DNA of 64,000 nt from Blastocatellia bacterium (GTDB taxonomy: Bacteria > Acidobacteriota > Blastocatellia > UBA7656). Of this stretch, positions 28,482 to 47,157 are shown piece after piece. A program made the translations under genes and the position numbers. The stretch covers positions 101,574 to 165,573 of the forward strand of contig DATDOV010000079.1 of the NCBI GenBank assembly GCA_035293105.1, in the 5' to 3' direction. Below the pieces are notes generated by a model. It saw only the letters and a list, made by a program, of their open reading frames with translations, was not told the DNA's origin and ran no database searches. Within the stretch, counting starts at the first letter, position 1. Every line of letters starts with the position of its first letter.

Positions 28482-28874
28482 ATGAATCTGGGGACCTTTC
28501 GAGTGGGTTCGCCTCGCAAACCGGGCGACGGCTTGCGAGTCGGCACAGTGCGCTTTCTGCCGCGCGGAGTGAAGAAAGAAGACTACGCGCGACTGGACTA
28601 CTTCGACGTCTGGTTTCCGTTGCTGGCTCCAAGCTCGGAGCTGCTCAAGTGGCTGAAGAGCCGTGAGTGGCCAAGCGAGCAAGTGCGCTGGTCGAAGTTC
28701 AGAGAGCGCTACGTTGCCGAGATGAACAAGACCGACGCGCGTCAGGCTATCAAGCTTCTGGCAGAGCTAGCCAGAGCTACTTCGGTGAGCATAGGGTGTT
28801 ACTGTGAGGATGAGTCAGCCTGCCATCGCTCGACACTGCGGGCGTTGATAGAACGAGCCGCCATCTTGCCTTGA
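28482..28874 (+). CDS. DUF488 / YeaO-family protein (copy 1 of 3)
   Basis: ...RVGTVRFLPRGVKKEDYARLDYFDVWFPLLAPSSELLKW...GCYCEDESACHR aligns with E. coli YeaO ([36 protein letters not shown]). Confidence 0.75.
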   Translation: MNLGTFRVGSPRKPGDGLRVGTVRFLPRGVKKEDYARLDYFDVWFPLLAPSSELLKWLKSREWPSEQVRWSKFRERYVAEMNKTDARQAIKLLAELARATSVSIGCYCEDESACHRSTLRALIERAAILP

Positions 28875-28917
28875 GGAAGCTGGCCGCATGTCCTCAGCGG
28901 TGTATAATGAGCGAGCT

Positions 28918-29256
28918 ATGACAACCCTAGAGAATACTCAAGCCGTGCCCCTGACAGTCTGGGAAGACGGTTCGATTCGTGTCGCCGGCTCGCGGGTAAC
29001 GCTCGACTCGATTGTATATGAATTCAAGCTCGGCGCCACCGCGGAGCAGATCCTTCACAGCTTTCCGTCAGTTTCGTTGCGCGATATCTACGGCGCGATT
29101 TTCTATTACCTCAACAACACCGAGGTTGTCGAAGAGTACCTTGGTCACCGCGAACGGGGGGCGGAAGAGACGCGGTTGTTCATTGAGAGCCGCTTGGACA
29201 CGAGGTCCCTTCGCGAACGGATCCTGGCCAGGCGTGACCAGATGGTTGGCAGATAA
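28918..29256 (+). CDS. DUF433 protein (antitoxin-like partner of DUF5615)
   Basis: MTTLENTQAVPLTVWEDGSIRVAGSRVTLDSIVYEFKLGATAEQILHSFPSVSLRDIYGAIFYYL. Confidence 0.6.
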   Translation: MTTLENTQAVPLTVWEDGSIRVAGSRVTLDSIVYEFKLGATAEQILHSFPSVSLRDIYGAIFYYLNNTEVVEEYLGHRERGAEETRLFIESRLDTRSLRERILARRDQMVGR

Positions 29257-29286
29257 CGCGCGAGTCCGGCTACGCTTCGTGGCCTT

Positions 29287-29625
29287 CTGTTTGACGAAAA
29301 CTTCAATCATAGAATCGTACATGGGTTGCAATTGCGCCTGCCGGGTCTCGATTTCGTGATTGCTCAGGAAATAGAACTGAAGGGCGCCAAAGACCCGGAG
29401 TTGTTGGAGTGGGCCGCGACGCAGAACCGGGTCGTCGTCACGCATGACGTCGACACATTGTTGAAGTTCGCATACGAACGCATAGTTGGCGGCCAACTGA
29501 TGCCGGGCGTGATAGCCGTCCCACAGATCCTCCCGATAGGGCAAGCGATAGACGATCTGGCAACCGCCATCGAGTGCTCGGAGGCAAGCGATTTGGAGAA
29601 CTCAGTCTTGCACCTGCCTTTGTAA
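29287..29625 (+). CDS. DUF5615 (PIN-like) protein; start codon uncertain or non-canonical
   Basis: In-frame LLFDENFNHRIVHGLQLRLPGLDFVIAQE... begins right after the DUF433 stop. No ATG/GTG upstream; CTG at 29287 or TTG at 29326. Confidence 0.5.
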   Translation: MFDENFNHRIVHGLQLRLPGLDFVIAQEIELKGAKDPELLEWAATQNRVVVTHDVDTLLKFAYERIVGGQLMPGVIAVPQILPIGQAIDDLATAIECSEASDLENSVLHLPL

Positions 29626-29669
29626 CTGAAAGACGCGGGGACTGACTCGGGGCCGGCCTTGGATAAGAT

Positions 29670-29921
29670 ATGAAATACGAACTGTTCACCCGAGTCGCGC
29701 TGAATACCGATCTGCCGCGATACGGACTCCGCAGCGGGGACGTGGCAACGGTCATCGAGCACCATCCCGGACGGCCAGGCCAAGAGCCCGGCTACAGCCT
29801 TGAAGTGTCTAACGCGGTCGGGGAAACGGTCGCCGTGGTCACCGTCCGCGAGTCTCAGATCGTGCCGCTCAATGCCAACGAACCTTTGCATGTCCGCCTG
29901 CTGGCGGAAACGTCCCGCTGA
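29670..29921 (+). CDS. DUF4926 protein
   Basis: MKYELFTRVALNTDLPRYGLRSGDVATVIEHHP... 83 aa. Confidence 0.55.
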   Translation: MKYELFTRVALNTDLPRYGLRSGDVATVIEHHPGRPGQEPGYSLEVSNAVGETVAVVTVRESQIVPLNANEPLHVRLLAETSR

Positions 29922-29977
29922 TCGCTACCCGACGCGAATAGAACAGATGGACCGCGCCCGTCGGGGATCTGTTTAGG

Positions 29978-30382
29978 ATGCCGAGCTCCACGATAAATCT
30001 GGGAACGTTTCGAGTGGGCTCGCCTCGCAAGCGGGGCGAGGGCTTGCGAGTCGGCACAGTGCGCTTTCTGCCGCGCGGAGTGAAGAAAGAAGACTACGCG
30101 CGACTGGACTACTTCGACGTCTGGTTTCCGCTGCTGGCCCCAAGCTCGGAGTTGCTCCGATGGATGAAGAGCCGCGAGTGGCCAACCGAGCAAGTCAGGT
30201 GGTCGAAGTTCAGAGAGCGCTACACTGCCGAGATGAACAAGACCGCCGCCCGCCAGGCGATCAAGCTTCTGGCAGAGTTAGCCAGAGCGACGCCGTTGAG
30301 CATAGGGTGCTACTGCGAGACCGAGTCAGCCTGTCATCGCTCGATACTGCGTGAGTTGATTGAAAACGCGGCAGGCGAGTAG
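29978..30382 (+). CDS. DUF488 / YeaO-family protein (copy 2 of 3)
   Basis: About 90% nt identity to 28482-28874 over the whole gene. Confidence 0.75.
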   Translation: MPSSTINLGTFRVGSPRKRGEGLRVGTVRFLPRGVKKEDYARLDYFDVWFPLLAPSSELLRWMKSREWPTEQVRWSKFRERYTAEMNKTAARQAIKLLAELARATPLSIGCYCETESACHRSILRELIENAAGE

Positions 30383-30452
30383 GAGGGCTAGCCGTGCCGA
30401 TGAAGTCGCGGTTCAAGCGATGATATATCTGGACCATAACGAAGCAACTCGA

Positions 30453-30896
30453 TCATTTCACGTCGGCCGGAGAGACGGCAGTGATTCCTGGATAGCGCTT
30501 GAAGTCGGCTACGTTGAATGTAAGCAGATGCGTGATGCCATACACATTCATCGAAGCGACAAGCTTGGCATCGTGAACCTCAACGCCCATCACCGAGTGA
30601 GTTACAACAAGCCGCCGCCATTCCTGGAAGGTCGCTAGACTGTCCGGGAGCAAACGAAAGTAGCGTTCAATCAGACGCGCTTTTCGTTCTGTTTGAGTCA
30701 ATGAAAGGCTGAGCCCGCCGCGCGCCGAAGCCGGACGAGTACCGACGTTCCAGAACTCGCTCAGGACCTGTGGAGTGAAACAAAGAACTTCATTTCGCGA
30801 GCGGAGCCTTCGCAGAGCATCAAGAGCCATTTGGCGCTGCGGATCGTTGCGGTGGGCCAGCCGGAGAAACAGATTCGTATCGAAAAGATAGGCCAT
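30453..30896 (-). CDS. vapC: PIN-domain toxin (VapC-like)
   Basis: MAYLFDTNLFLRLAHRNDP... acidic PIN residues (D5, E, D, N/D). Confidence 0.75.
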   Translation of the reverse strand: MAYLFDTNLFLRLAHRNDPQRQMALDALRRLRSRNEVLCFTPQVLSEFWNVGTRPASARGGLSLSLTQTERKARLIERYFRLLPDSLATFQEWRRLVVTHSVMGVEVHDAKLVASMNVYGITHLLTFNVADFKRYPGITAVSPADVK

Positions 30897-31159
30897 CAGT
30901 CGTGGTCGAAGTAGATGTCGGCGCGCGAATAGCTCCCGGAGTAAGCTGGCAGATGCTCCGTTCCTTCGGCAAACGCTTGCATGTCCGCTTCAAACTCAGC
31001 GTCGTTCGCGGGAGCGGGCGCTGATAATTCATCAACTGATCGGGTTGCGCTGGCTTGCACAAGGCTCTCGACAAAGGACTTCACATCCAGGCCATACGCC
31101 TTAGCCCTTTGTTCCAAAATGTGTCTCACGTCTTCGGGAACTGAAATCGTTAATTCCAT
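30896..31159 (-). CDS. VapB-like antitoxin
   Basis: 87-aa ORF whose stop overlaps the vapC start. MELTISVPEDVRHILEQRAKAYGLDVKSFVESLV. Confidence 0.55.
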   Translation of the reverse strand: MELTISVPEDVRHILEQRAKAYGLDVKSFVESLVQASATRSVDELSAPAPANDAEFEADMQAFAEGTEHLPAYSGSYSRADIYFDHD

Positions 31160-31398
31160 TCGCGACTCTCTATCCGTTTCTCGATCCAGATTCCAAGTCC
31201 ACGTCTGTATCTATGAGTAGCGCATTGCTGTCGCGCCAGGATCTCCTTACTCATACAACGCGCCTCTTAGATTGGCAGCAGTATAGCACTCCGGTGACTA
31301 GCTGATAAGAGAGTACGATCAGACGCGTGCGCGTCACGATTTTGCGCGAGAAGGGAGGGACTGCTTGACCGTCGCAAAAAGTGCGTCACCCCAGAGTA

Positions 31399-31588
31399 TC
31401 TCATTAACACCTCACTTCAGTGAGGTGCCCTCGACCGAGCGGATCCCCCAACCGTTTCAACGGTTTCCTCTCTCGCAGTCGTCTTTCAAACTCGAAGTCT
31501 TCGGATTCCATGAGCGCAAACCGTTAAAACGGTTCAGGGGATCCGCCGAGCCAAGAGCACCTCACTGAAGTGAGGTGTTAATGAGAAC
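31399..31588. mobile_element. ~190-bp near-perfect palindromic MITE-like element
   Basis: Left end tctcattaacacctcacttcagtgaggtg and right end cacctcactgaagtgaggtgttaatgaga are reverse complements. Each end is itself a hairpin. Inner nested inverted repeats (gatcccccaaccgtttcaacggtt / aaccgttaaaacggttcaggggatcc). Confidence 0.6.
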
Positions 31589-31733
31589 CGATGTTCCCGC
31601 GAGCCTTGACGTCCCAGTTTTGATCACATCCCCAAACCGTGACGCGCACCCCGATCAGACGGCTCGGCCACGCAACCAAGTAGATGTTCGTAGTACCGGC
31701 TTCAGATGAAATCATGGCCTTGGCGTCGGCATA

Positions 31734-32048
31734 GTGCGCTTTCTGCCGCGCGGAGTGAAGAAAGAAGACTACGCGCGACTGGACTACTTCGACGTCTGGT
31801 TTCCGCTGCTGGCCCCAAGCGCTGAGTTGCTCACTTGGCTGAAGAGCCGCGAGTGGCCGAGCGAGCAAGTCAGATGGTCGAAGTTCAAAGAGCGCTACGT
31901 TGCCGAGATGAACAAGACCGACGCGCGGCAGGCTATCAAGCTTCTGGCCGAGTTAGCCAGAGCTACTCCGTTGAGCATAGGGTGTTACTGCGAGAACGAG
32001 TCAGCCTGTCATCGCTCTATGCTGCGTGAGTTGATCGAAGAGCCCTGA
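31734..32048 (+). pseudogene. DUF488 / YeaO-family protein (copy 3), 5'-truncated
   Basis: Homology to copies 1 and 2 starts at codon ~25 (RFLPRGVKKEDYARLDYFDVWFPLL...). First ~25 codons are replaced by unrelated sequence next to the palindromic element. Confidence 0.6.
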
Positions 32049-32136
32049 AGCTTTAGTGGGTCGTAGGATTGGTCCGACGCTTTCGCGATAATCTGCGATT
32101 TGAAGCAATCGAAAACTTGGGATAGGCTTACGTCCC

Positions 32137-33057
32137 ATGAAAAGCCTTGGTTCAGCCGGCAGCCTACCTTTGTTTGATGAATCTGCAGACGGCAACCCTC
32201 TTGAACATCAATCCGAGAAGCCCGAAAAGACTTCGCCCTTTAGCGACCTTGATCTGAATCGCTGGCGCGAATATGAAGACATCGTTACCGACTCGCTGTG
32301 GCTCATACCAGAACGGGACCGGACTGGCGCGCATCTCGCGGACTATCACGGAAACTTTGTTCCTCAAATCCCCTATCAGGCGATGCGGCGGTTTACGAAA
32401 CGCGGAGATGTTGTGCTCGACGCATTCTTGGGTTCCGGCACGACCCTCATCGAATGTCGCAGACTAGGGCGACACGGAATCGGCGTTGAGCTTAAGCCAG
32501 AGCTTGCAAAGCAAGCAGCCGACCGTATCGCGAGCCAAGGCAATCGCTACCAGGTCAAGACAGAGGTGCTGACGTCAGATAGTTGTGATCCCGTAAAGAC
32601 TCCTGGAGTCATTTCGCAGAGTCTTGAAACCATCGGCAAGGATTCAGTGCAGCTTGCAATACTTCATCCTCCGTATCATTCAATAATTAGGTTCTCTGAT
32701 CGTGCGGATGATCTGTCTAATTGCCCTACGGTTGACGTGTTTCAAAAAACGTTTGGCCGAGCGGTTGATGTAGTGACTCCATTCCTCGACATAGGCCGCT
32801 ATCTGGTCTTGGTCATCGGTGATATGTATGCTGGCAGCGAATGGATTCCTCTTGGATTTCGGTGCATGAACGAGATAATGGAGCGCGGGTACACTCTGAA
32901 GAGCATCGTCGTTAAAGATATGCAAGGAAATCGGGCTAAACGAAATCTGGAGAACATCTGGCGCTATCGCGCGCTAGTCGGCGGCTTCTACATCTTCAAG
33001 CACGAGTACGTCATGTTTTTCAGGAAGGGCAGAACGAATGGCCGAACTGCCATTTAG
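32137..33057 (+). CDS. N6-adenine or N4-cytosine DNA methyltransferase (R-M)
   Basis: Motif I VVLDAFLGSGTT; motif IV LHPPY (D/N/S-PP-Y variant). Confidence 0.8.
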   Translation: MKSLGSAGSLPLFDESADGNPLEHQSEKPEKTSPFSDLDLNRWREYEDIVTDSLWLIPERDRTGAHLADYHGNFVPQIPYQAMRRFTKRGDVVLDAFLGSGTTLIECRRLGRHGIGVELKPELAKQAADRIASQGNRYQVKTEVLTSDSCDPVKTPGVISQSLETIGKDSVQLAILHPPYHSIIRFSDRADDLSNCPTVDVFQKTFGRAVDVVTPFLDIGRYLVLVIGDMYAGSEWIPLGFRCMNEIMERGYTLKSIVVKDMQGNRAKRNLENIWRYRALVGGFYIFKHEYVMFFRKGRTNGRTAI

Positions 33058-33685
33058 TCAAGGCTCAAAGCTCCGTCAGACCTTTCAAATCCTCGCAGAT
33101 GGTAACTGGCATTGCGGCAAACATGAGTTGCCAGGAACGCAGCCTGCGAAGGCGATTCAGATCATCAGGCAGACCGGATACGAAGTAGAGAACAGGACGC
33201 AGCATTGCAATCGTTGCGACGAACGGACTGTCCACCGACGACTCGTTTCGACCAGCCCGTCGGCGAGCTCAGTGGCCCGGTCGGCGTTGCCGGAAAAGCT
33301 CAAGGGGCGTGTGAAGACGCTGTTCAAGAACATCGAGGCCATCACACAAAGAACCTACGAACCGAATCAGCTGGAGGTGGACCACCGTTTTCCGCAAGTA
33401 AGGTGGTCGAGCCCGGAGGCGATGAATGATCCGAACATGTCGGATGCTGATATCACTGCAAAGTTCCAGCTCCTTACACGGCAGCACAATCTATGGAAGA
33501 GTCGGTATTGTGAGGCATGTTTGAAAACTGGGCGTCGTGGGACCTATATCGGGATTGAGTACTTCTACGAAGGCGGCTTGATGTGGCCAGAGGACATTCA
33601 TCCAGACGACGAACGCGGCTGCATTGGTTGCTTTTGGTATGACCCTGAGAAATGGCGCCAGAGCCTGAACCAGCTTGTAAGCTAA
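33038..33685 (+). CDS. putative type II restriction endonuclease partner
   Basis: Overlaps MTase 3' end by 20 nt. Cys-rich (CGKH...CNRCDE...CEAC...CIGC) with an EVDHRFP HNH-like element. Confidence 0.45.
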   Translation: MAELPFSQGSKLRQTFQILADGNWHCGKHELPGTQPAKAIQIIRQTGYEVENRTQHCNRCDERTVHRRLVSTSPSASSVARSALPEKLKGRVKTLFKNIEAITQRTYEPNQLEVDHRFPQVRWSSPEAMNDPNMSDADITAKFQLLTRQHNLWKSRYCEACLKTGRRGTYIGIEYFYEGGLMWPEDIHPDDERGCIGCFWYDPEKWRQSLNQLVS

Positions 33686-33727
33686 CCTGCGCGGCCATCG
33701 GTGAAAGAGTACGAAACCCAAACCTGG

Positions 33728-34510
33728 TTATCCGAGGTCGCCGGGACGTACAGTCACTATAGTGAGAACGCGGTTGTAGTATGGCAATAGTATGGAGTCT
33801 TCCCACACCTTCCCAAAAACGTGTCCGGCTAGCCATGCCTCTGCACGTACGGCTCCGTCTTGCTCGCGCTCTTCCGTCGGGCGGAAGAGGTTGCTCGCGA
33901 GGGACTCGACGCTGACTTCAGTACCTTTGCGCTTGATGTAATGCTGGAATTGAGGGCCGGGTCTCCACCATTCAATTATCCCGCTGTCACTAACCACCAA
34001 AGCGCATTGTTCCTCAGTGACGTCGACGCACTTGACAGTAGCTGCGGTTAGCGAGGTCTGAAATTTCGCACTTATCTTTTTCGCGACCACCACGGTTGCT
34101 GACTCTTGTCGAACGATAGTGGCTGCTTGTGCCGATGGAATTAGCAATTCTGACGCGAACCGATTCGCGTCAATCTCGTGTTCTGGTGCGCCGCGGCTCC
34201 ACGATTCGACGTCGCGACTCTTACAAACGCAATCTAGCTCTCCGTGCCCCGGTAGAATGTAATGGCCGAGTTCGTGAGCGATCGTGAATCTCTTCCGGCC
34301 AGGCTCACGTATGGTCGCCTTAACAGCGACGATACCTGTCGGTTTGTTAGGAATACGAACCAACGCGCCTTCGAAACCCTCTGACTCGACCTCGCAAATC
34401 TCCAACCCGATTCTGTCCGCAAGCTCAGATAGATCGGGCGTCGTCGATATCTTGAATCGCCTTAAGAGCGCGCGAGCGAAGTCTTCAGGTTGTGCTGGTG
34501 TCCGATTCAC
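33728..34510 (-). CDS. ImmA/IrrE-family metallo-endopeptidase (COG2856, CapP-like)
   Basis: HEXXH (IAHELGHYIL) followed by EIDANRFASELLIP, the family signature E-x-N-x-F-A-x-x-L-L. Confidence 0.75.
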   Translation of the reverse strand: MNRTPAQPEDFARALLRRFKISTTPDLSELADRIGLEICEVESEGFEGALVRIPNKPTGIVAVKATIREPGRKRFTIAHELGHYILPGHGELDCVCKSRDVESWSRGAPEHEIDANRFASELLIPSAQAATIVRQESATVVVAKKISAKFQTSLTAATVKCVDVTEEQCALVVSDSGIIEWWRPGPQFQHYIKRKGTEVSVESLASNLFRPTEEREQDGAVRAEAWLAGHVFGKVWEDSILLPYYNRVLTIVTVRPGDLG

Positions 34511-34959
34511 TCTGACCCCGTATCGCCCTCGTCAAGCTTGCTTTTCAGCGAATCGAGGATTTCTTTGTCCTTGGAGGAGACCTTCTCGCCAAGCTTACGA
34601 CCGCGTAGCGAGGATACGGCCTCAGCGCCGGCAGAGGGCAGAGTCCCGCTCAACAGGTTAGCTAAGTAGCAGTCGGGGTCAACACCAGCAGACTCCGACT
34701 TCTTCTCTTCTGCACGCCGCAGATTCCTCAGAGCGTTCTCCACTGGGACCGGCACACTTTTGCTTTTCGACCTGAGTTCACGCACTCCAGCTTCGACTCT
34801 TGACATCAGCTTGGAAACCAGATCAGATGAATCAACACCACAAGCCTTAAGCACATCCTTGGCAGTTTCAAGATCAATCTCTTCGTCAGGCCCTAGTAAC
34901 GCCTCGAAGAGTTCATCTTCTTCGGTCTTTGGAAGTGGCTGGGTTCTTTTGTTAGGCAT
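34507..34959 (-). CDS. acidic low-complexity protein (candidate anti-sigma / peptidase substrate)
   Basis: 150 aa, highly charged. Translationally coupled on both sides: 14-nt gap to the upstream gene, 4-nt overlap with ImmA. Confidence 0.4.
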   Translation of the reverse strand: MPNKRTQPLPKTEEDELFEALLGPDEEIDLETAKDVLKACGVDSSDLVSKLMSRVEAGVRELRSKSKSVPVPVENALRNLRRAEEKKSESAGVDPDCYLANLLSGTLPSAGAEAVSSLRGRKLGEKVSSKDKEILDSLKSKLDEGDTGSE

Positions 34960-34973
34960 ACGCGGCCACCTTT

Positions 34974-35561
34974 CTAGTTACCCTTCTGCCGATACTTCAT
35001 CGATCCGGCACGGCGCCAGCCGGTAAGTCTCGTTCTCACTCTCCGCTGGCGGCCCCTCAGTTGCTGAGCGGTTATACCGAGGAACTCTGCAATTTCCTTT
35101 GGCTTTGCTGGCCACAACTCCAGAACCGCCTCAACATAATCCTCCAGTTCTTTCTCCCCTTTTACAAGAGCGTAGATTCTCGCCTTTGTGAGGGCATCGT
35201 GCTCAGCGTTCCCAAGGTCGTCCTCAAAGGCGTCGATTACCCTGAGAGCCTTCTCATGCTTTAGCGAGTCCAGAACGGTACTCCTCTTATACCCGCTGTG
35301 TTTCGTCACTATGTCCAGGAAATCACGCGTCATGACAGTCAGGAGCAACGGATATGGGTCTTCATCGTGTGTCTTGGGCCGCCATTCTACGCCTCTTTGG
35401 AATATGAAGGCTTCAACTGTCTCAACAGCAAAGTCTTCAGCGGATTTCCCAGACCCCGGTAGAACTGATAGCCCTTGACGGACGAATAGCCCTTCGGCAG
35501 CGGCATACAACCGACTTAGCAGGCCTTCCAGATCGACATTCGCGAAGCGTGAATCGTCCAT
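34974..35561 (-). CDS. divergent sigma-70-family (ECF-like) protein
   Basis: Region-2-like SAEDFAVETVEAFIFQR...DPYPLLLTVMTRDFLDIV and region-4-like HTH EIAEFLGITAQQLRGRQRRVRTRL. Confidence 0.45.
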   Translation of the reverse strand: MDDSRFANVDLEGLLSRLYAAAEGLFVRQGLSVLPGSGKSAEDFAVETVEAFIFQRGVEWRPKTHDEDPYPLLLTVMTRDFLDIVTKHSGYKRSTVLDSLKHEKALRVIDAFEDDLGNAEHDALTKARIYALVKGEKELEDYVEAVLELWPAKPKEIAEFLGITAQQLRGRQRRVRTRLTGWRRAGSMKYRQKGN

Positions 35562-35820
35562 TCCGGGACCTCTTCATTCTTAAAGCGAGTCAGGGTCTAG
35601 GAACTGGCAAGAAATCTGTCATCAAGAAATTTTTCTGCCAGTTTTAGCCGACACAGTCGCTTAGACAGTGGAGGTTGGCACCGGCCGATTAGCCGTCATC
35701 TAACAAGAGGCATGCTAACCCACGGAAAGGGCTAAGAGGAAGATCAACCAGACACGGACGATCTGCTTGGACGATCTGCTTGGCCACGACAGCAACCGAA
35801 CCTGAAGGGAGTTATCAACA
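35562..35820. promoter_or_regulatory. divergent control region between sigma/ImmA operon and Ubl operon
   Basis: Inverted repeat AACTGGCAAGAAAT-N13-ATTTTTCTGCCAGTT. GGAACT -35-like element. Tandem 14-mer gacgatctgcttgg x2. Confidence 0.45.
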
Positions 35821-36852
35821 ATGAGCAACAAAACCGATTCAACGGCTGTTGACGATCTCGTCGACGGCCAGTGGCTTGAAGATATCGATGCGGCGCTGCC
35901 TCAGGCGGTCGCCGAGGCCACAGTAGATGGACGGCTGCCCGCGAAAGCTCAACACCTGAAAGTTCAGGTTGGGTTTCGCGAATTGCCGGACGGGCACGAG
36001 GTCAAGTTCAAGGCCTCACTTACGAATACACTGCTGGAAGTGTTCGAATGGGCAGCGCAGGAACTCGGGAAACCTCTACTACCTCCCGCCAGCAACCAGC
36101 CGCTCGATCTATTGCGCTGTCGGGAGCGACACGGCGACGGCTGGAGCGAGCCTATCACAGGCCTCGACCGGCCGCTCTGGCTCGTGTTGGTTGAAAGCTG
36201 CTCTCGACATTTCGGAATCGAATATGTGCTGGCTGTTAAGATCAACACGAAGTGGGCCGTAGCACCGTCCGCAAAAATGACGCCGCGCGAGCTGCTCACT
36301 AGCTTTGGGTTTGATCCCTCTCAATTCAGCCTGTACAAGCCCGATAGCACGGAGCCGCTGCCGGCGGACACGCCGATCCCTCTTCATCGAGGAGAGAGGT
36401 TTGAAGCGCAGAAGGACGGGAAGTATGGAGCGTCGGTGATGGCAGAGCGTCCGGCGCGCGGCTCACAGACGATCGACGATGATCTGGAAGGAATAAGGGA
36501 GGCGGGTATCGACGCCCGCCTCCTCGACTCCAACGGACAAAAGTACGCCGAGGTGAAGGGAATAGCGGTACCGTCGCCTCCTTGGTCTCTGGACAGGCTC
36601 ACACTGCTGTTCGCTATTCCGGCTACGTACCCGACAGGCGGGCTCGACGCGTTCTACATCGAGTTGCCCGTTAGCCACGCTAGCGGTTCCGTTCCGTACC
36701 AATCTCAGACCGCGCAGATCGATGGCAGATCGTGGGGGCTGATCTCATGGCACTATCCGACCGGGCGGCCCTGGAACCCGTCGCATGACGATCTTTCTAC
36801 TCATATCGAGCATTGTCGTGGAGCATTGATGAGGCGTGGGGTGACGCAGTGA
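35821..36852 (+). CDS. multi-ubiquitin (tandem beta-grasp) domains fused to prokaryotic E2-like (UBC-fold) domain
   Basis: Two Ub-like repeats (HLKVQVGFRELPDGHEVKFKASLTNTLLEVFEWAAQELG; LAVKINTKWAVAPSAKMTPRELLTSFGFDPSQFSLYKPDS...IPLHRGERFEA). C-terminal E2-like region (...LLFAIPATYPTGGLDAFYIELPV...ISWHYPTGRPWNPSHDDL...). Confidence 0.55.
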   Translation: MSNKTDSTAVDDLVDGQWLEDIDAALPQAVAEATVDGRLPAKAQHLKVQVGFRELPDGHEVKFKASLTNTLLEVFEWAAQELGKPLLPPASNQPLDLLRCRERHGDGWSEPITGLDRPLWLVLVESCSRHFGIEYVLAVKINTKWAVAPSAKMTPRELLTSFGFDPSQFSLYKPDSTEPLPADTPIPLHRGERFEAQKDGKYGASVMAERPARGSQTIDDDLEGIREAGIDARLLDSNGQKYAEVKGIAVPSPPWSLDRLTLLFAIPATYPTGGLDAFYIELPVSHASGSVPYQSQTAQIDGRSWGLISWHYPTGRPWNPSHDDLSTHIEHCRGALMRRGVTQ

Positions 36853-45569: not shown

Positions 45570-45719
45570 TCTCGCATCCTCCCATGCCGGAATACGCCCA
45601 GAGCTGGCGACATCAAGCTGCACACTAACTCCGGGCCGATGATCGGTCAAGCGACTACAGGCTCTGAGGTGCGCGTCAGGTTTTCGCGGTGAGCCGCTCA
45701 AACGGAACTCCATAACCAC

Positions 45720-45990
45720 CTCATCAGAGGTGGGCTGCCTGATGTTCTAGCCTACAACGCACCACGACTGCTCATACCCCCTCGCAGGGGTGGGTTCTTG
45801 ATGCTGCGGCCCTAGCGGCCCTTGCGCACGCGCCTCTCTGGTCGGAGTCGCTCATGGATGCCTCGAACATCAGGGGACCCACCTCTCACACGAGGTGGGT
45901 ATGGGACAAAAGCAGAGGTAAGATCGCGATCTTCTTCGTGTAGGCTGGAGCATCACCGACCCACCTCTCACGAGGTGGGTATGCGCGAAA
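45720..45990. repeat. cluster of four GGTGGG-containing hairpins (REP-like)
   Basis: catcagAGGTGGGctgcctgatg; cgcagGGGTGGGttcttgatgctgcg; gacccacctctcacacgaggtgggtatg; gacccacctctcacgaggtgggtatg. Confidence 0.4.
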
Positions 45991-46077
45991 ACGTGACGCG
46001 CACCTCAGGCTCTGACTCGCTGGCCATCTGCATCGTAGCACCTCCTTGAAGCGGACCGGCGCAATTGCTCGAATGCC

Positions 46078-47157
46078 TTGGATGTGATAGTAAGAGACTT
46101 CAATGACTATCACCGCGAGGTTGAAGTGGTAAAGAGGATTGTCGGCACGCTCGTTGTTGTAGCGCTTCTGTCTGTGTGCAGCTTGTCGCAGACATCGTCG
46201 CAGGCGCCGAATGCCCCGCCCCCCGAAACGCTCGACCAGAAGCTCGGCCCGGACGACGGCGCGGCGCTCGCCATACTGTTCGGCGCCAATCTGCGAGGTA
46301 ACCTCTTCCCCTGCGACTGAAATCATCCCCGCGGGGGGCTGGCGCGGCGCGTCGGCTACGTCGATGGTTTCAAAGCGAAGTTCAAACAGACGCCCGTCCT
46401 GCAAGTCGAGGCCGGAAACTTCTGGTATGACAACACCGGCTACATGGCCGACGTGATGCTCCAGAACGAGCAAGTCGCGATCGCTTACAGCCAGTGGCCG
46501 ATTGATGTCATCAACCTCGGCCGGTTCGACTTGATCTTCGCCCGCAAGCTCCTCACCCGCCAGGGACTCGAGCAGCGAACGGCCGCCGTTCCAATGATCA
46601 AGAACTTGATATCGGCAAACGGTACATTCGAAACTCCCTCGGCCGCGCCGCCCGCGTTCATCATCAAAGAAATCACCGGGCCGCGAATCAAAGGCAAGCT
46701 CGACAAGGTCCGCGTAGGCTTCATCGGCGTGACTGCTCCCGCCAAGATCTCGGGCGGCGTCGATGCAACGGTGACCGACATGTTCGAAGCGGTGCGCAAG
46801 GTCGCCCCCGACGTGCGTAAGCAGTGCGACATACTGGTGATCCTCGCTCACTCGGAGTATGAGCCGGCGCTGCGGCTCGCGCGAGAGAATCCCGAAGCCG
46901 ACATCGTCATTTCCGGCAACGCCGAAGGAAACTACGGGCCGCAACGGATCGGGAAGACCTTGGTGCTGGTTGCCGCGCCCGGAAACACCCAGGAAGGCGA
47001 CCTTCGTGTGTACATCGGCGAGGATGGAAGCTTCAGCTATAAGTTCCGCTCGCCCGACCTGGACGCCGAGGTACCCTCCGATCCCGAGGCGATGGCTTAT
47101 GCGGAGGCCGCTCGCAATGAGCTTCATCGCTTCCGTTCGAGCGGGATGCGCCGCTGA
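46078..47157 (+). pseudogene. secreted metallophosphoesterase (5'-nucleotidase N-domain)-like protein with in-frame TGA
   Basis: Signal peptide. LAILFGANLRGNLFPCD-[TGA 46318-20]-NHPRGGLARR... continues in frame to 47157. The stop sits at the Gly of the GNH[DE] motif. Motif I is degenerate. Confidence 0.5.

Follow-up and report, generated by a model that had tools for sequence, protein, structure and literature searches.

A 188-nt palindrome (31399–31586) in a 64,000-nucleotide stretch of DNA from a Blastocatellia bacterium (hereafter the window, meaning that whole stretch) represents a single copy of a hairpin repeat that soil Acidobacteria commonly carry. This palindrome is probably a gene-less derivative of a unit encoding a Y1 transposase, similar to the REPINs (repetitive extragenic palindromic, or REP, doublets forming hairpins) and spread by the Y1 enzyme, with the copy in the window carried in by a 327-bp element that was itself moved by a DDE transposase. 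It corresponds exactly to the two ends of a Y1 unit without the gene. Whether the Y1 genes and the elements form together a hitherto undescribed partnership of the REPIN/RAYT type (RAYT, REP-associated tyrosine transposase), based on a class-1, IS200-like enzyme of subclass 1.2 and a TCTCATT two-hairpin module and present in at least five phyla, is in our judgement an even call. As part of the same reading, the repeats may also have been captured in Blastocatellia as the core of a DDE-type miniature inverted-repeat transposable element (MITE), which would represent a second route of spread.

Structure of the palindrome

The palindrome consists of two inverted modules, each holding a terminal tag, a terminal hairpin (hp1), a spacer of 22–23 nt, and an inner hairpin (hp2), which are separated by a non-conserved centre of 53 nt (31466–31518). 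Read on the + strand, the left tag TCTCATTAA (31399–31407; family consensus TCTCATTnn) is followed by hp1-L (CACCTCAC-TTCA-GTGAGGTG, 31408–31427) and hp2-L (AACCGTTTCAACGGTT, with a 6-bp stem and a TTCA loop, 31450–31465), and, past the centre, by hp2-R (AACCGTTAAAACGGTT, 31519–31534), hp1-R (CACCTCAC-TGAA-GTGAGGTG, 31558–31577), and the right tag TTAATGAGA (31578–31586), which carries the family terminus. Both terminal hairpins were found by repeat and hairpin searches, and the 20-nt hp1 has 0 matches in shuffles of the window; for hp1-L and hp2-L, covariation adds to this evidence. The two inner hairpins, both of the AACCGTTnnAACGGTT type, were confirmed by pattern match in the window and flank Y1 genes elsewhere. 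When hp2 is read as a 6-bp stem, its loop is the same as that of hp1 (TTCA/TGAA).

The first-pass annotation of this region had described a near-perfect palindrome of 190 bp at 31399–31588. Its place and its palindromy stand, with 50-nt outer arms (31399–31448 and 31537–31586) that are 88% complementary and 28-nt nested arms (31445–31472 and 31512–31539) that are 82% complementary, but its length is 188 nt and it ends at 31586. The stem-loop that was proposed for each end is found as the 20-nt hairpins hp1-L and hp1-R, and the nested inner inverted repeats as the nested arms plus the two inner hairpins; the stretch of ~39 nt between the nested arms (31473–31511) is non-palindromic. Folding in both orientations, suggested at the same time as a check, yields very stable structures for either strand: the + strand folds at -111.5 kcal/mol (z = -13.7) and the - strand at -135.2 kcal/mol (z = -17.6). 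The - strand is thus favoured by 22 kcal/mol, and all five transition mismatches of the arms turn into G–U pairs in its fold.

The palindrome is not an assembly artefact, since it is present at 100% identity in independent ENA, JGI, and Logan contigs. Some public contigs break at it (L204 ends at 31596; L212 begins at 31602), and another one, L205, follows the window sequence just through the right inner hairpin and then runs on into a different REP-like module (CCCACGAC-TTCA-GTCGTGGG plus AGTCGTTTTAACGACT). This change of partner inside the palindrome reflects either a switch made by the assembler at a repeat or a genuine recombination event.

A dispersed repeat family

Further copies were sought with the terminal-hairpin pattern CACCTCACTNNAGTGAGGTG, as exact matches in one genome per species; the counts are taken from the resulting listing and are lower bounds. 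The pattern matches at least 120 public genome loci, and the element is therefore not unique, although just one copy is found in the window. Among the matches listed, the hosts are mostly metagenome-assembled genomes (MAGs) of Blastocatellia/Pyrinomonadaceae, with several loci per MAG (at least 19 in JTS-RE45, at least 11 in SMAG_U4671, at least 9 in SMAG_U4525, at least 9 in BPF2, and then at least 8 and at least 8), and a few loci belong to Verrucomicrobiota, Bacteroidota, Ignavibacteriae, Nitrospirota, and Binatia. Many of the loci fall at contig ends.

Pairing of left and right ends among the same matches resulted in 54 pairs, all of them with the termini TCTCATTAACAC...GTGTTAATGAGA (TCTCATTnn...nnAATGAGA), where the tag consists of TCTCATT followed by AA, AG, CA, or CT. 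As many as 53 of these pairs are gene-less elements of 91–345 nt, whose length distribution has modes at about 150, 175, and 211 nt; the remaining one (L066, 659 nt) encloses a Y1 gene. Solo forms (L039 and L052) and a minimal doublet (L023) are also present. The palindrome itself is the dispersed unit, because 70 of the 100 flanks are unique; about 30% of the palindrome flanks are part of larger shared arms. No target-site duplication was detected at the palindrome ends in 45 of 52 copies, a result equal to that of shuffled partners. The term MITE, used in the first-pass annotation, is consequently right in denoting a dispersed non-coding repeat family, but the lack of duplications at the palindrome ends and the match of these ends to the flanks of Y1 genes make the palindrome REPIN-like rather than a classical MITE. 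In a Limisphaerales MAG (L017, 4808–5020), the terminal hairpin and a TTAATGAAA tag form a 63-nt tandem array of three to four units, an organisation that was seen in none of the Blastocatellia copies.

Conservation and covariation of the hairpins

The conserved features of the family are the 9-nt tag, the two hairpins per half, and the inter-hairpin distance of 20–26 nt. Spacer and centre sequences vary freely across copies, and the element centres, from 6 to 79 nt long, are mutually unrelated. The complementarity between the spacers of both halves is 0.74 in the window copy, which bears out for this copy the long cruciform that had been proposed, but it drops to 0.28–0.65 in most others, so that the cruciform is no feature of the family. 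It is particular to the lineage of the window copy, in which L006 is similar (82% identical over the 327-bp unit).

On the other hand, the local hairpins exhibit a clear pattern of compensation. The base of hp1 (CACC/GGTG) is invariant across the aligned copies, whereas its upper four pairs change on both sides (CACCCAAC/GTTGGGTG, CACCTGGC/GCCAGGTG, CACCTCGA/TCGAGGTG, and others), giving rise to stem variants that include CACCTCAC, CACCTGGC, and CACCCGGC. In the hp1 alignment, 94.3% of the cells are paired, and double-sided changes number 30 versus 7.5 in shuffles, with 0 of 500 shuffles reaching 30. For hp2, the pair counts are 246 for CC/GG and 47 for CT/AG, with only 3 one-sided intermediates. 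By this comparative evidence, the local hairpins are under structural selection. The covariation of the stems, together with the fixed bases and loops, points to the recognition of folded single strands, as carried out by Y1/HUH enzymes.

A very stable fold in which five transition mismatches become G–U pairs on the - strand would also suit a structured non-coding RNA gene, either a long-hairpin regulator or the guide RNA of a transposon nuclease. This is nevertheless very improbable, since the strand preference is shared by only 8 of 12 copies, the long-range pairing is not conserved, and no TnpB or IscB gene is found beside the Y1 units. An Rfam search of 30000–33000 at E <= 1 returned only sub-threshold models of plant microRNA precursors, which are generic long hairpins.

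The hairpin-bracketed Y1 transposase

Clustering of the open reading frames (ORFs) around the hairpins led to one transposase family of ~147 aa (147–149 aa), which is matched by the Pfam family Y1_Tnp ("Transposase IS200 like") at 5.5e-20 to 7.2e-24. The arrangement is exemplified by L066, from Bacteroidota, where tag-hp1 (664–692) is followed by a second hp1-type hairpin, hp2 (757–774), the gene (803–1249), hp2 (1252–1267), and hp1-tag (1294–1322). A similar plan is found in L009, L067, L104, L002, and L007, and the L104 unit is wedged between unrelated genes without any outer arms. These units comprise only ~600–700 nt, with no TnpB or IscB gene alongside. In JTS-RE45, there is one Y1 gene among the at least 19 loci.

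The choice of loci by their hairpins was reversed in a second set, made up of 80 metagenome loci picked solely for a Y1 homologue (63–72% identity). In these loci, hp2 lies upstream of the Y1 gene in 63 of 69 eligible flanks and 2–12 nt past the stop codon in 71 of 76 eligible downstream flanks, and the tag (as TYTYAYTnn) plus an 8-bp hairpin is present in 51/69 left and 58/76 right flanks. The presence of hp2 on both sides of genes chosen in this way confirms the link between the hairpins and the Y1 gene. The hp2 copies around the gene are always inverted, with TTCA/TTTA loops upstream and TGAA/TAAA loops downstream, and the stem variants of these loci are lineage-specific.

In 26 of the 80 Y1 loci, the gene downstream belongs to one and the same family, and only 3 distant Y1 matches were obtained among 72,556 plasmids. 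Recurring neighbours and near-absence from plasmids fit, if weakly, a resident gene better than an active insertion sequence (IS). In three metagenome loci on unrelated contigs (L144, L161, and L163), a few tens of bases separate the start of the Y1 unit from the 3' end of an upstream ORF whose product we take to resemble the zinc-finger C-terminus of Fpg/MutM (...TYWCPKCQ..*), and this recurrence hints at a conserved chromosomal location of the Y1 gene.

Class of the Y1 enzyme

The Y1 proteins hold an HUH motif of the form D/E-H-V/T-H and a Y motif of the form YI[AK][LNG]Q[ED]EHH, that is, the class-1 pattern Y---Q--HH; H-V-H and Y are invariant in the alignment. Quentin et al. 2018 characterize their subclass 1.2 by DH[IV]H, Y---Q--HH, a median length of 148 aa, and a short core, and regard it as the sister of the true IS200 transposases (PMC6006769). 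By motifs and length, rather than by the Quentin profiles, the Y1 proteins appear to fit TnpA-Y1 subclass 1.2. Their nearest solved structures are IS608 TnpA (2a6m, 3.7e-9) and ISDra2 TnpA (2xm3, 4.7e-9), and the E. coli TnpA-REP is absent from the PDB matches at E <= 0.01. Together with a marginal miss of the NCBIfam IS200 equivalog NF033573 (53.4 bits, with a cut-off of 55) and the near-absence from plasmids, these nearest relatives are in keeping with such a placement.

The outer element and its insertion

The inserted unit in the window is not the naked palindrome but a 327-bp MITE-like element (31325–31651) that carries it. This element is limited by a left terminal inverted repeat, GCGTGCGCGTCACGATTTTGC (31325–31345, + strand), and a right one, ...CAAACCGTGACGCGCACCC (31631–31651, + strand), which emerged from an inverted-repeat search and are 94% complementary over 16 nt; a direct-repeat search identified the 9-bp target-site duplication CGATCAGAC on both sides (31316–31324 and 31652–31660, + strand). 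It contains no ORF. A second element of the outer type is located at 45667–46005, with 25-nt terminal inverted repeats at 96% and the 9-bp duplication CAGGCTCTG at 45658–45666 and 46006–46014. Outside the window, L006 (1733–2049) aligns to 31327–31651 with 82% identity, and L039 has the same two arms around a solo 38-nt hairpin (TCTCATTAA-hp1-TTAATGAGA) instead of the palindrome. The terminal inverted repeats, about 14–20 nt overall, begin G[C/G]GTGCGCGTCACG..., and the element ends are GGGTGCGCGTCA....

The four copies hold in-register 9-bp duplications that are all different (CGATCAGAC and CAGGCTCTG in the window, CCTGACGAT in L006, and GACTGTCAG in L039), and this fixed length argues that the 327-bp unit was transposed in the DDE manner. 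In several other Blastocatellia MAGs, the palindrome is enclosed by related outer arms and approximate 9-bp duplications, which indicates that the composite has spread as a unit. No empty insertion site was found among the public contigs: every one that spans this position contains the element, 100% identical.

The interior of the element at 45667–46005 bears four hairpins of another REP-like type (CCACCTC-loop-GAGGTGG), in the form of CATAA-CCACCTC-ATCA-GAGGTGG and CCCACCTC-TCAC-GAGGTGGG-TATG, and on its right side the element runs into the 3' end of an ORF on the - strand (45886..47127).

Given this outer element, the whole family could be regarded as a classical MITE moved by a DDE transposase, where the hairpins are incidental and the Y1 gene is passenger cargo between the inverted repeats. 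The terminal inverted repeats and the 9-bp duplication around the window copy, the ~30% of palindrome flanks that belong to larger shared arms, and the resemblance of the two 60-nt modules to long terminal inverted repeats are all consistent with this explanation, which we nevertheless consider unlikely. The palindrome ends lack a duplication and 70% of the flanks are unique; the stems covary while the bases and loops stay fixed, as expected for folded single-strand recognition; among solved structures, the Y1 protein is closest to the TnpA of IS608 and ISDra2; and the Y1 unit of L104 is entirely devoid of outer arms.

Proposed mechanism of spread

The favoured explanation, a REPIN-like derivative of the Y1 unit, involves two enzymes. 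The repeated module, present in two inverted copies, comprises the TCTCATTnn tag, an 8-bp hairpin with the invariant CACC/GGTG base and the TTCA loop, the AACCGT-TTCA-ACGGTT hairpin, and, between the two hairpins, a spacer of ~22 nt. A Y1 enzyme encoded elsewhere in the genome is predicted to recognise these hairpins on single-stranded DNA and to cut and rejoin beside them, producing gene-less copies without target-site duplication, as has been proposed for REPIN/RAYT. Such behaviour has precedents in the IS608 and ISDra2 TnpA and in the E. coli TnpA-REP, which recognise hairpins on single strands and cleave next to them, leaving no duplication. The gene-less form would have arisen by loss of the Y1 gene, and we infer from the comparison of the loci that its copies may be mobilised in trans by the Y1 enzyme. 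The window copy is the core of the 327-bp element, and a separate DDE enzyme would have transposed this outer element to its present site, leaving the 9-bp duplication.

Several observations weigh against this explanation. Apart from self-matches, no further copy of the palindrome exists in the 64-kb window, and tblastn detected no Y1 gene there. The element centre shows no detectable similarity to a remnant of a Y1 gene or untranslated region, and the ends shared with the Y1 units are thus the one ground for proposing descent by gene deletion. No conserved flanking base, target tetranucleotide, or target motif was found beside the palindrome ends in the set of 52 copies used for the duplication analysis. 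The strand preference of the fold energy is shared by 8 of the 12 oriented copies, so that fold energies do not tell which strand is the substrate. As for the outer element, a parent IS with its terminal inverted repeats was sought in the window and in loci L001–L200, where no inverted pair 0.7–4 kb apart held a credible ORF. Moreover, subclass 1.2 has been reported as "REP: no" (PMC6006769).

Comparison with known systems

The REPIN/RAYT (TnpA-REP) systems of Proteobacteria (Nunvar 2010; Bertels & Rainey 2011, PMC3116915; Ton-Hoang 2012; Quentin 2018, PMC6006769) represent the closest counterpart in terms of organisation. As in these systems, two inverted hairpin repeats form a larger hairpin, here in 53 gene-less doublets; the same repeats bracket a Y1/HUH gene in an inverted, REPtron-like arrangement; and the gene-less copies are dispersed and extragenic, lack target-site duplications, and occur in both solo and doublet forms. 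Despite these similarities, there are clear differences. The tag is TCTCATTnn instead of GT[AG]G (or CGTC) at the foot of the hairpin, each half contains two hairpins with a fixed spacing of 20–26 nt, the enzyme has the class-1 motif Y---Q--HH and not the class-2 Y---NP (as defined in PMC6006769), and the hosts are Acidobacteriota, Verrucomicrobiota, Bacteroidota, and others.

With the IS200/IS605 elements and their gene-less PATEs (palindrome-associated transposable elements), the family shares a small Y1 HUH enzyme, hairpins near both ends, and the lack of target-site duplications. IS608-type ends present their hairpins on one strand. Here, however, the ends are inverted repeats that include the tags and the loops, placing tag plus hairpin on opposite strands at the two ends, and for this reason the geometry is that of a REPIN rather than that of IS608. 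The family also differs from IS200/IS605 in that no conserved target tetranucleotide was found beside its ends and no tnpB gene is present. The element therefore works like a REPIN, yet it fails both the GT[AG]G tag and class-2 enzyme of the REPINs and the same-strand ends of IS200/IS605.

Regarding subclass 1.2, the HUH and Y motifs and the length (147–149 aa versus a median of 148) agree with its description (PMC6006769). In contrast to what has been reported for this subclass, essentially every member examined here is bracketed by two hairpins per side, and gene-less copies are abundant in Blastocatellia (PMC6006769 for the reported state).

An 18-nt palindrome of Caldithrix abyssi, nAACCGTTnnAACGGTTn, with 38 exact copies and an intergenic preference, has been called REP-like (Kublanov et al. 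2017, PMC5317091), and the orientation of its loop (GA versus TC) switches with the direction of replication (PMC5317091). Its sequence is identical to hp2. It was described, however, as an isolated 18-mer whose surroundings are not conserved and which was not connected with any transposase (PMC5317091), whereas hp2 is here part of a two-hairpin module tied to a Y1 gene. In the literature searched, the hp1 sequence and REPINs in Acidobacteria were not found, and hp2 appeared only in the Caldithrix paper (PMC5317091).

The outer element resembles the classical MITEs with terminal inverted repeats and target-site duplications, since it exhibits both features (the latter of 9 bp), has no ORF, and is present in several copies (two in the window, L006, and L039). 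It differs from them in what occupies its core: a palindrome of the REPIN type or, in the copy at 45667–46005, REP-like hairpins of another kind.

Genomic context of the insertion

The element is intergenic and lies between two divergent units, an RHH-PIN operon and a truncated DUF488 copy. The region has a single match to a sigma-70-like promoter (TTATCA-17-TATACT with TG; 31308–31280, - strand), which is 17 nt from the left end of the element and faces the RHH-PIN operon, whose upstream context may have been altered by the insertion.

This location between divergent units, close to a promoter-like site, could also be expected from an extragenic palindrome that serves the host as an mRNA stabiliser, a terminator, or a protein-binding or supercoiling site, and is no longer mobile. 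Such functions have been described for the REPs of E. coli (summarised in PMC5317091 and PMC6006769), and the recurring neighbours of the Y1 genes and their near-absence from plasmids are as in domesticated genes. A host role is even so quite unlikely, in view of the lack of a terminator-like T tract, the single copy in 64 kb, and the freedom of spacers and centres to vary; it concerns only the present function and is compatible with an origin as a mobile element. As to the terminator in particular, this reading was rejected, as 31100–31800 contains no terminator-like site.

Beyond the element, a 5'-truncated DUF488-N3a copy extends over 31734–32048 (+ strand). That this neighbour is truncated, as claimed in the first-pass annotation, is corroborated by its match to Pfam DUF488-N3a, which starts at profile position 21 of 118, as opposed to position 3 for the intact copies at 28482–28874 and 29978–30382. 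The palindrome had been placed immediately upstream of this gene; it is indeed nearby on the upstream side, but 147 nt separate its end from the GTG start. The further proposal that the insertion caused the truncation does not hold. An intact target-site duplication joins DNA that was previously contiguous and deletes nothing, so the insertion cannot have made the truncation. Comparison with the intact copies places the breakpoint at ~31716, where the similarity starts, past an in-frame TGA (31707–31709) and apart from the element ends, 55 nt downstream of the duplication and 130 nt downstream of the palindrome.

Recombination between paralogues is a more plausible source of the rearrangements at the DUF488 locus. 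A JGI contig (3300025160; L211, 999–1394) bears a single hybrid full-length DUF488 gene of 131 aa directly before a methylase gene, with a 5' part of the copy-2 type and a 3' part of the copy-3 type (relative to window 29978–32048), and holds neither PIN-RHH nor the MITE. This hybrid suggests that the DUF488 paralogues recombine with each other. In the window, three DUF488-N3a paralogues, ~90% identical over their shared part, are found within 3.6 kb (28482–32048), interleaved with small toxin-antitoxin-like genes (DUF4160/DUF2442, DUF433 plus DUF5615, DUF4926, and RHH-PIN), and the homology between the copies ends near the gene borders. The region from 32137 to 36852 is defence-island-like, comprising an N6/N4 DNA methylase that overlaps a weak ICEA-like ORF, an IrrE/Peptidase_M78 protein, and a ubiquitin-conjugating-like Prok-E2_E protein.

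Since it is an imperfect palindrome that has AAC...GTT close to either end, and small toxin-antitoxin-like genes abound around it, the palindrome might be taken for an integron attC or another recombination site marking gene cassettes. This possibility is close to nil, and the attC reading was rejected because of the mismatch in the core sites (CATTAAC and GTTAATG versus the required RYYYAAC and GTTRRRY) and because there is a single copy among many small genes, without an array. In addition, the palindrome is enclosed in an element that has terminal inverted repeats and a duplication, and its family is associated with Y1 genes rather than with integrases, although no integrase scan of the window was made. 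The usual length of attC sites is 57–141 nt, a range that is exceeded by the 188 nt of the palindrome.

Biological significance

REPIN/RAYT represents the best-studied case of the persistence of a transposase together with its hairpin repeats within bacterial lineages, so far linked to class-2 enzymes and GTAG tags and found mostly in Proteobacteria. The repeats described here are of practical relevance, as they break metagenome assemblies, in which contigs end at them, and mark recent insertions, in this case beside a cluster of toxin-antitoxin and defence genes. The tag plus two hairpins also provides a short and well-defined substrate for biochemistry. If the proposed partnership is real, the replication-strand-biased AACCGTTnnAACGGTT palindrome of Caldithrix abyssi would gain a candidate origin. 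A class-1 arrangement that abounds in poorly studied soil phyla would furthermore widen the picture of the REPINs and support their descent from IS200-type elements, and it would represent a living intermediate between the IS200 insertion sequences and the domesticated RAYT/REPIN systems.

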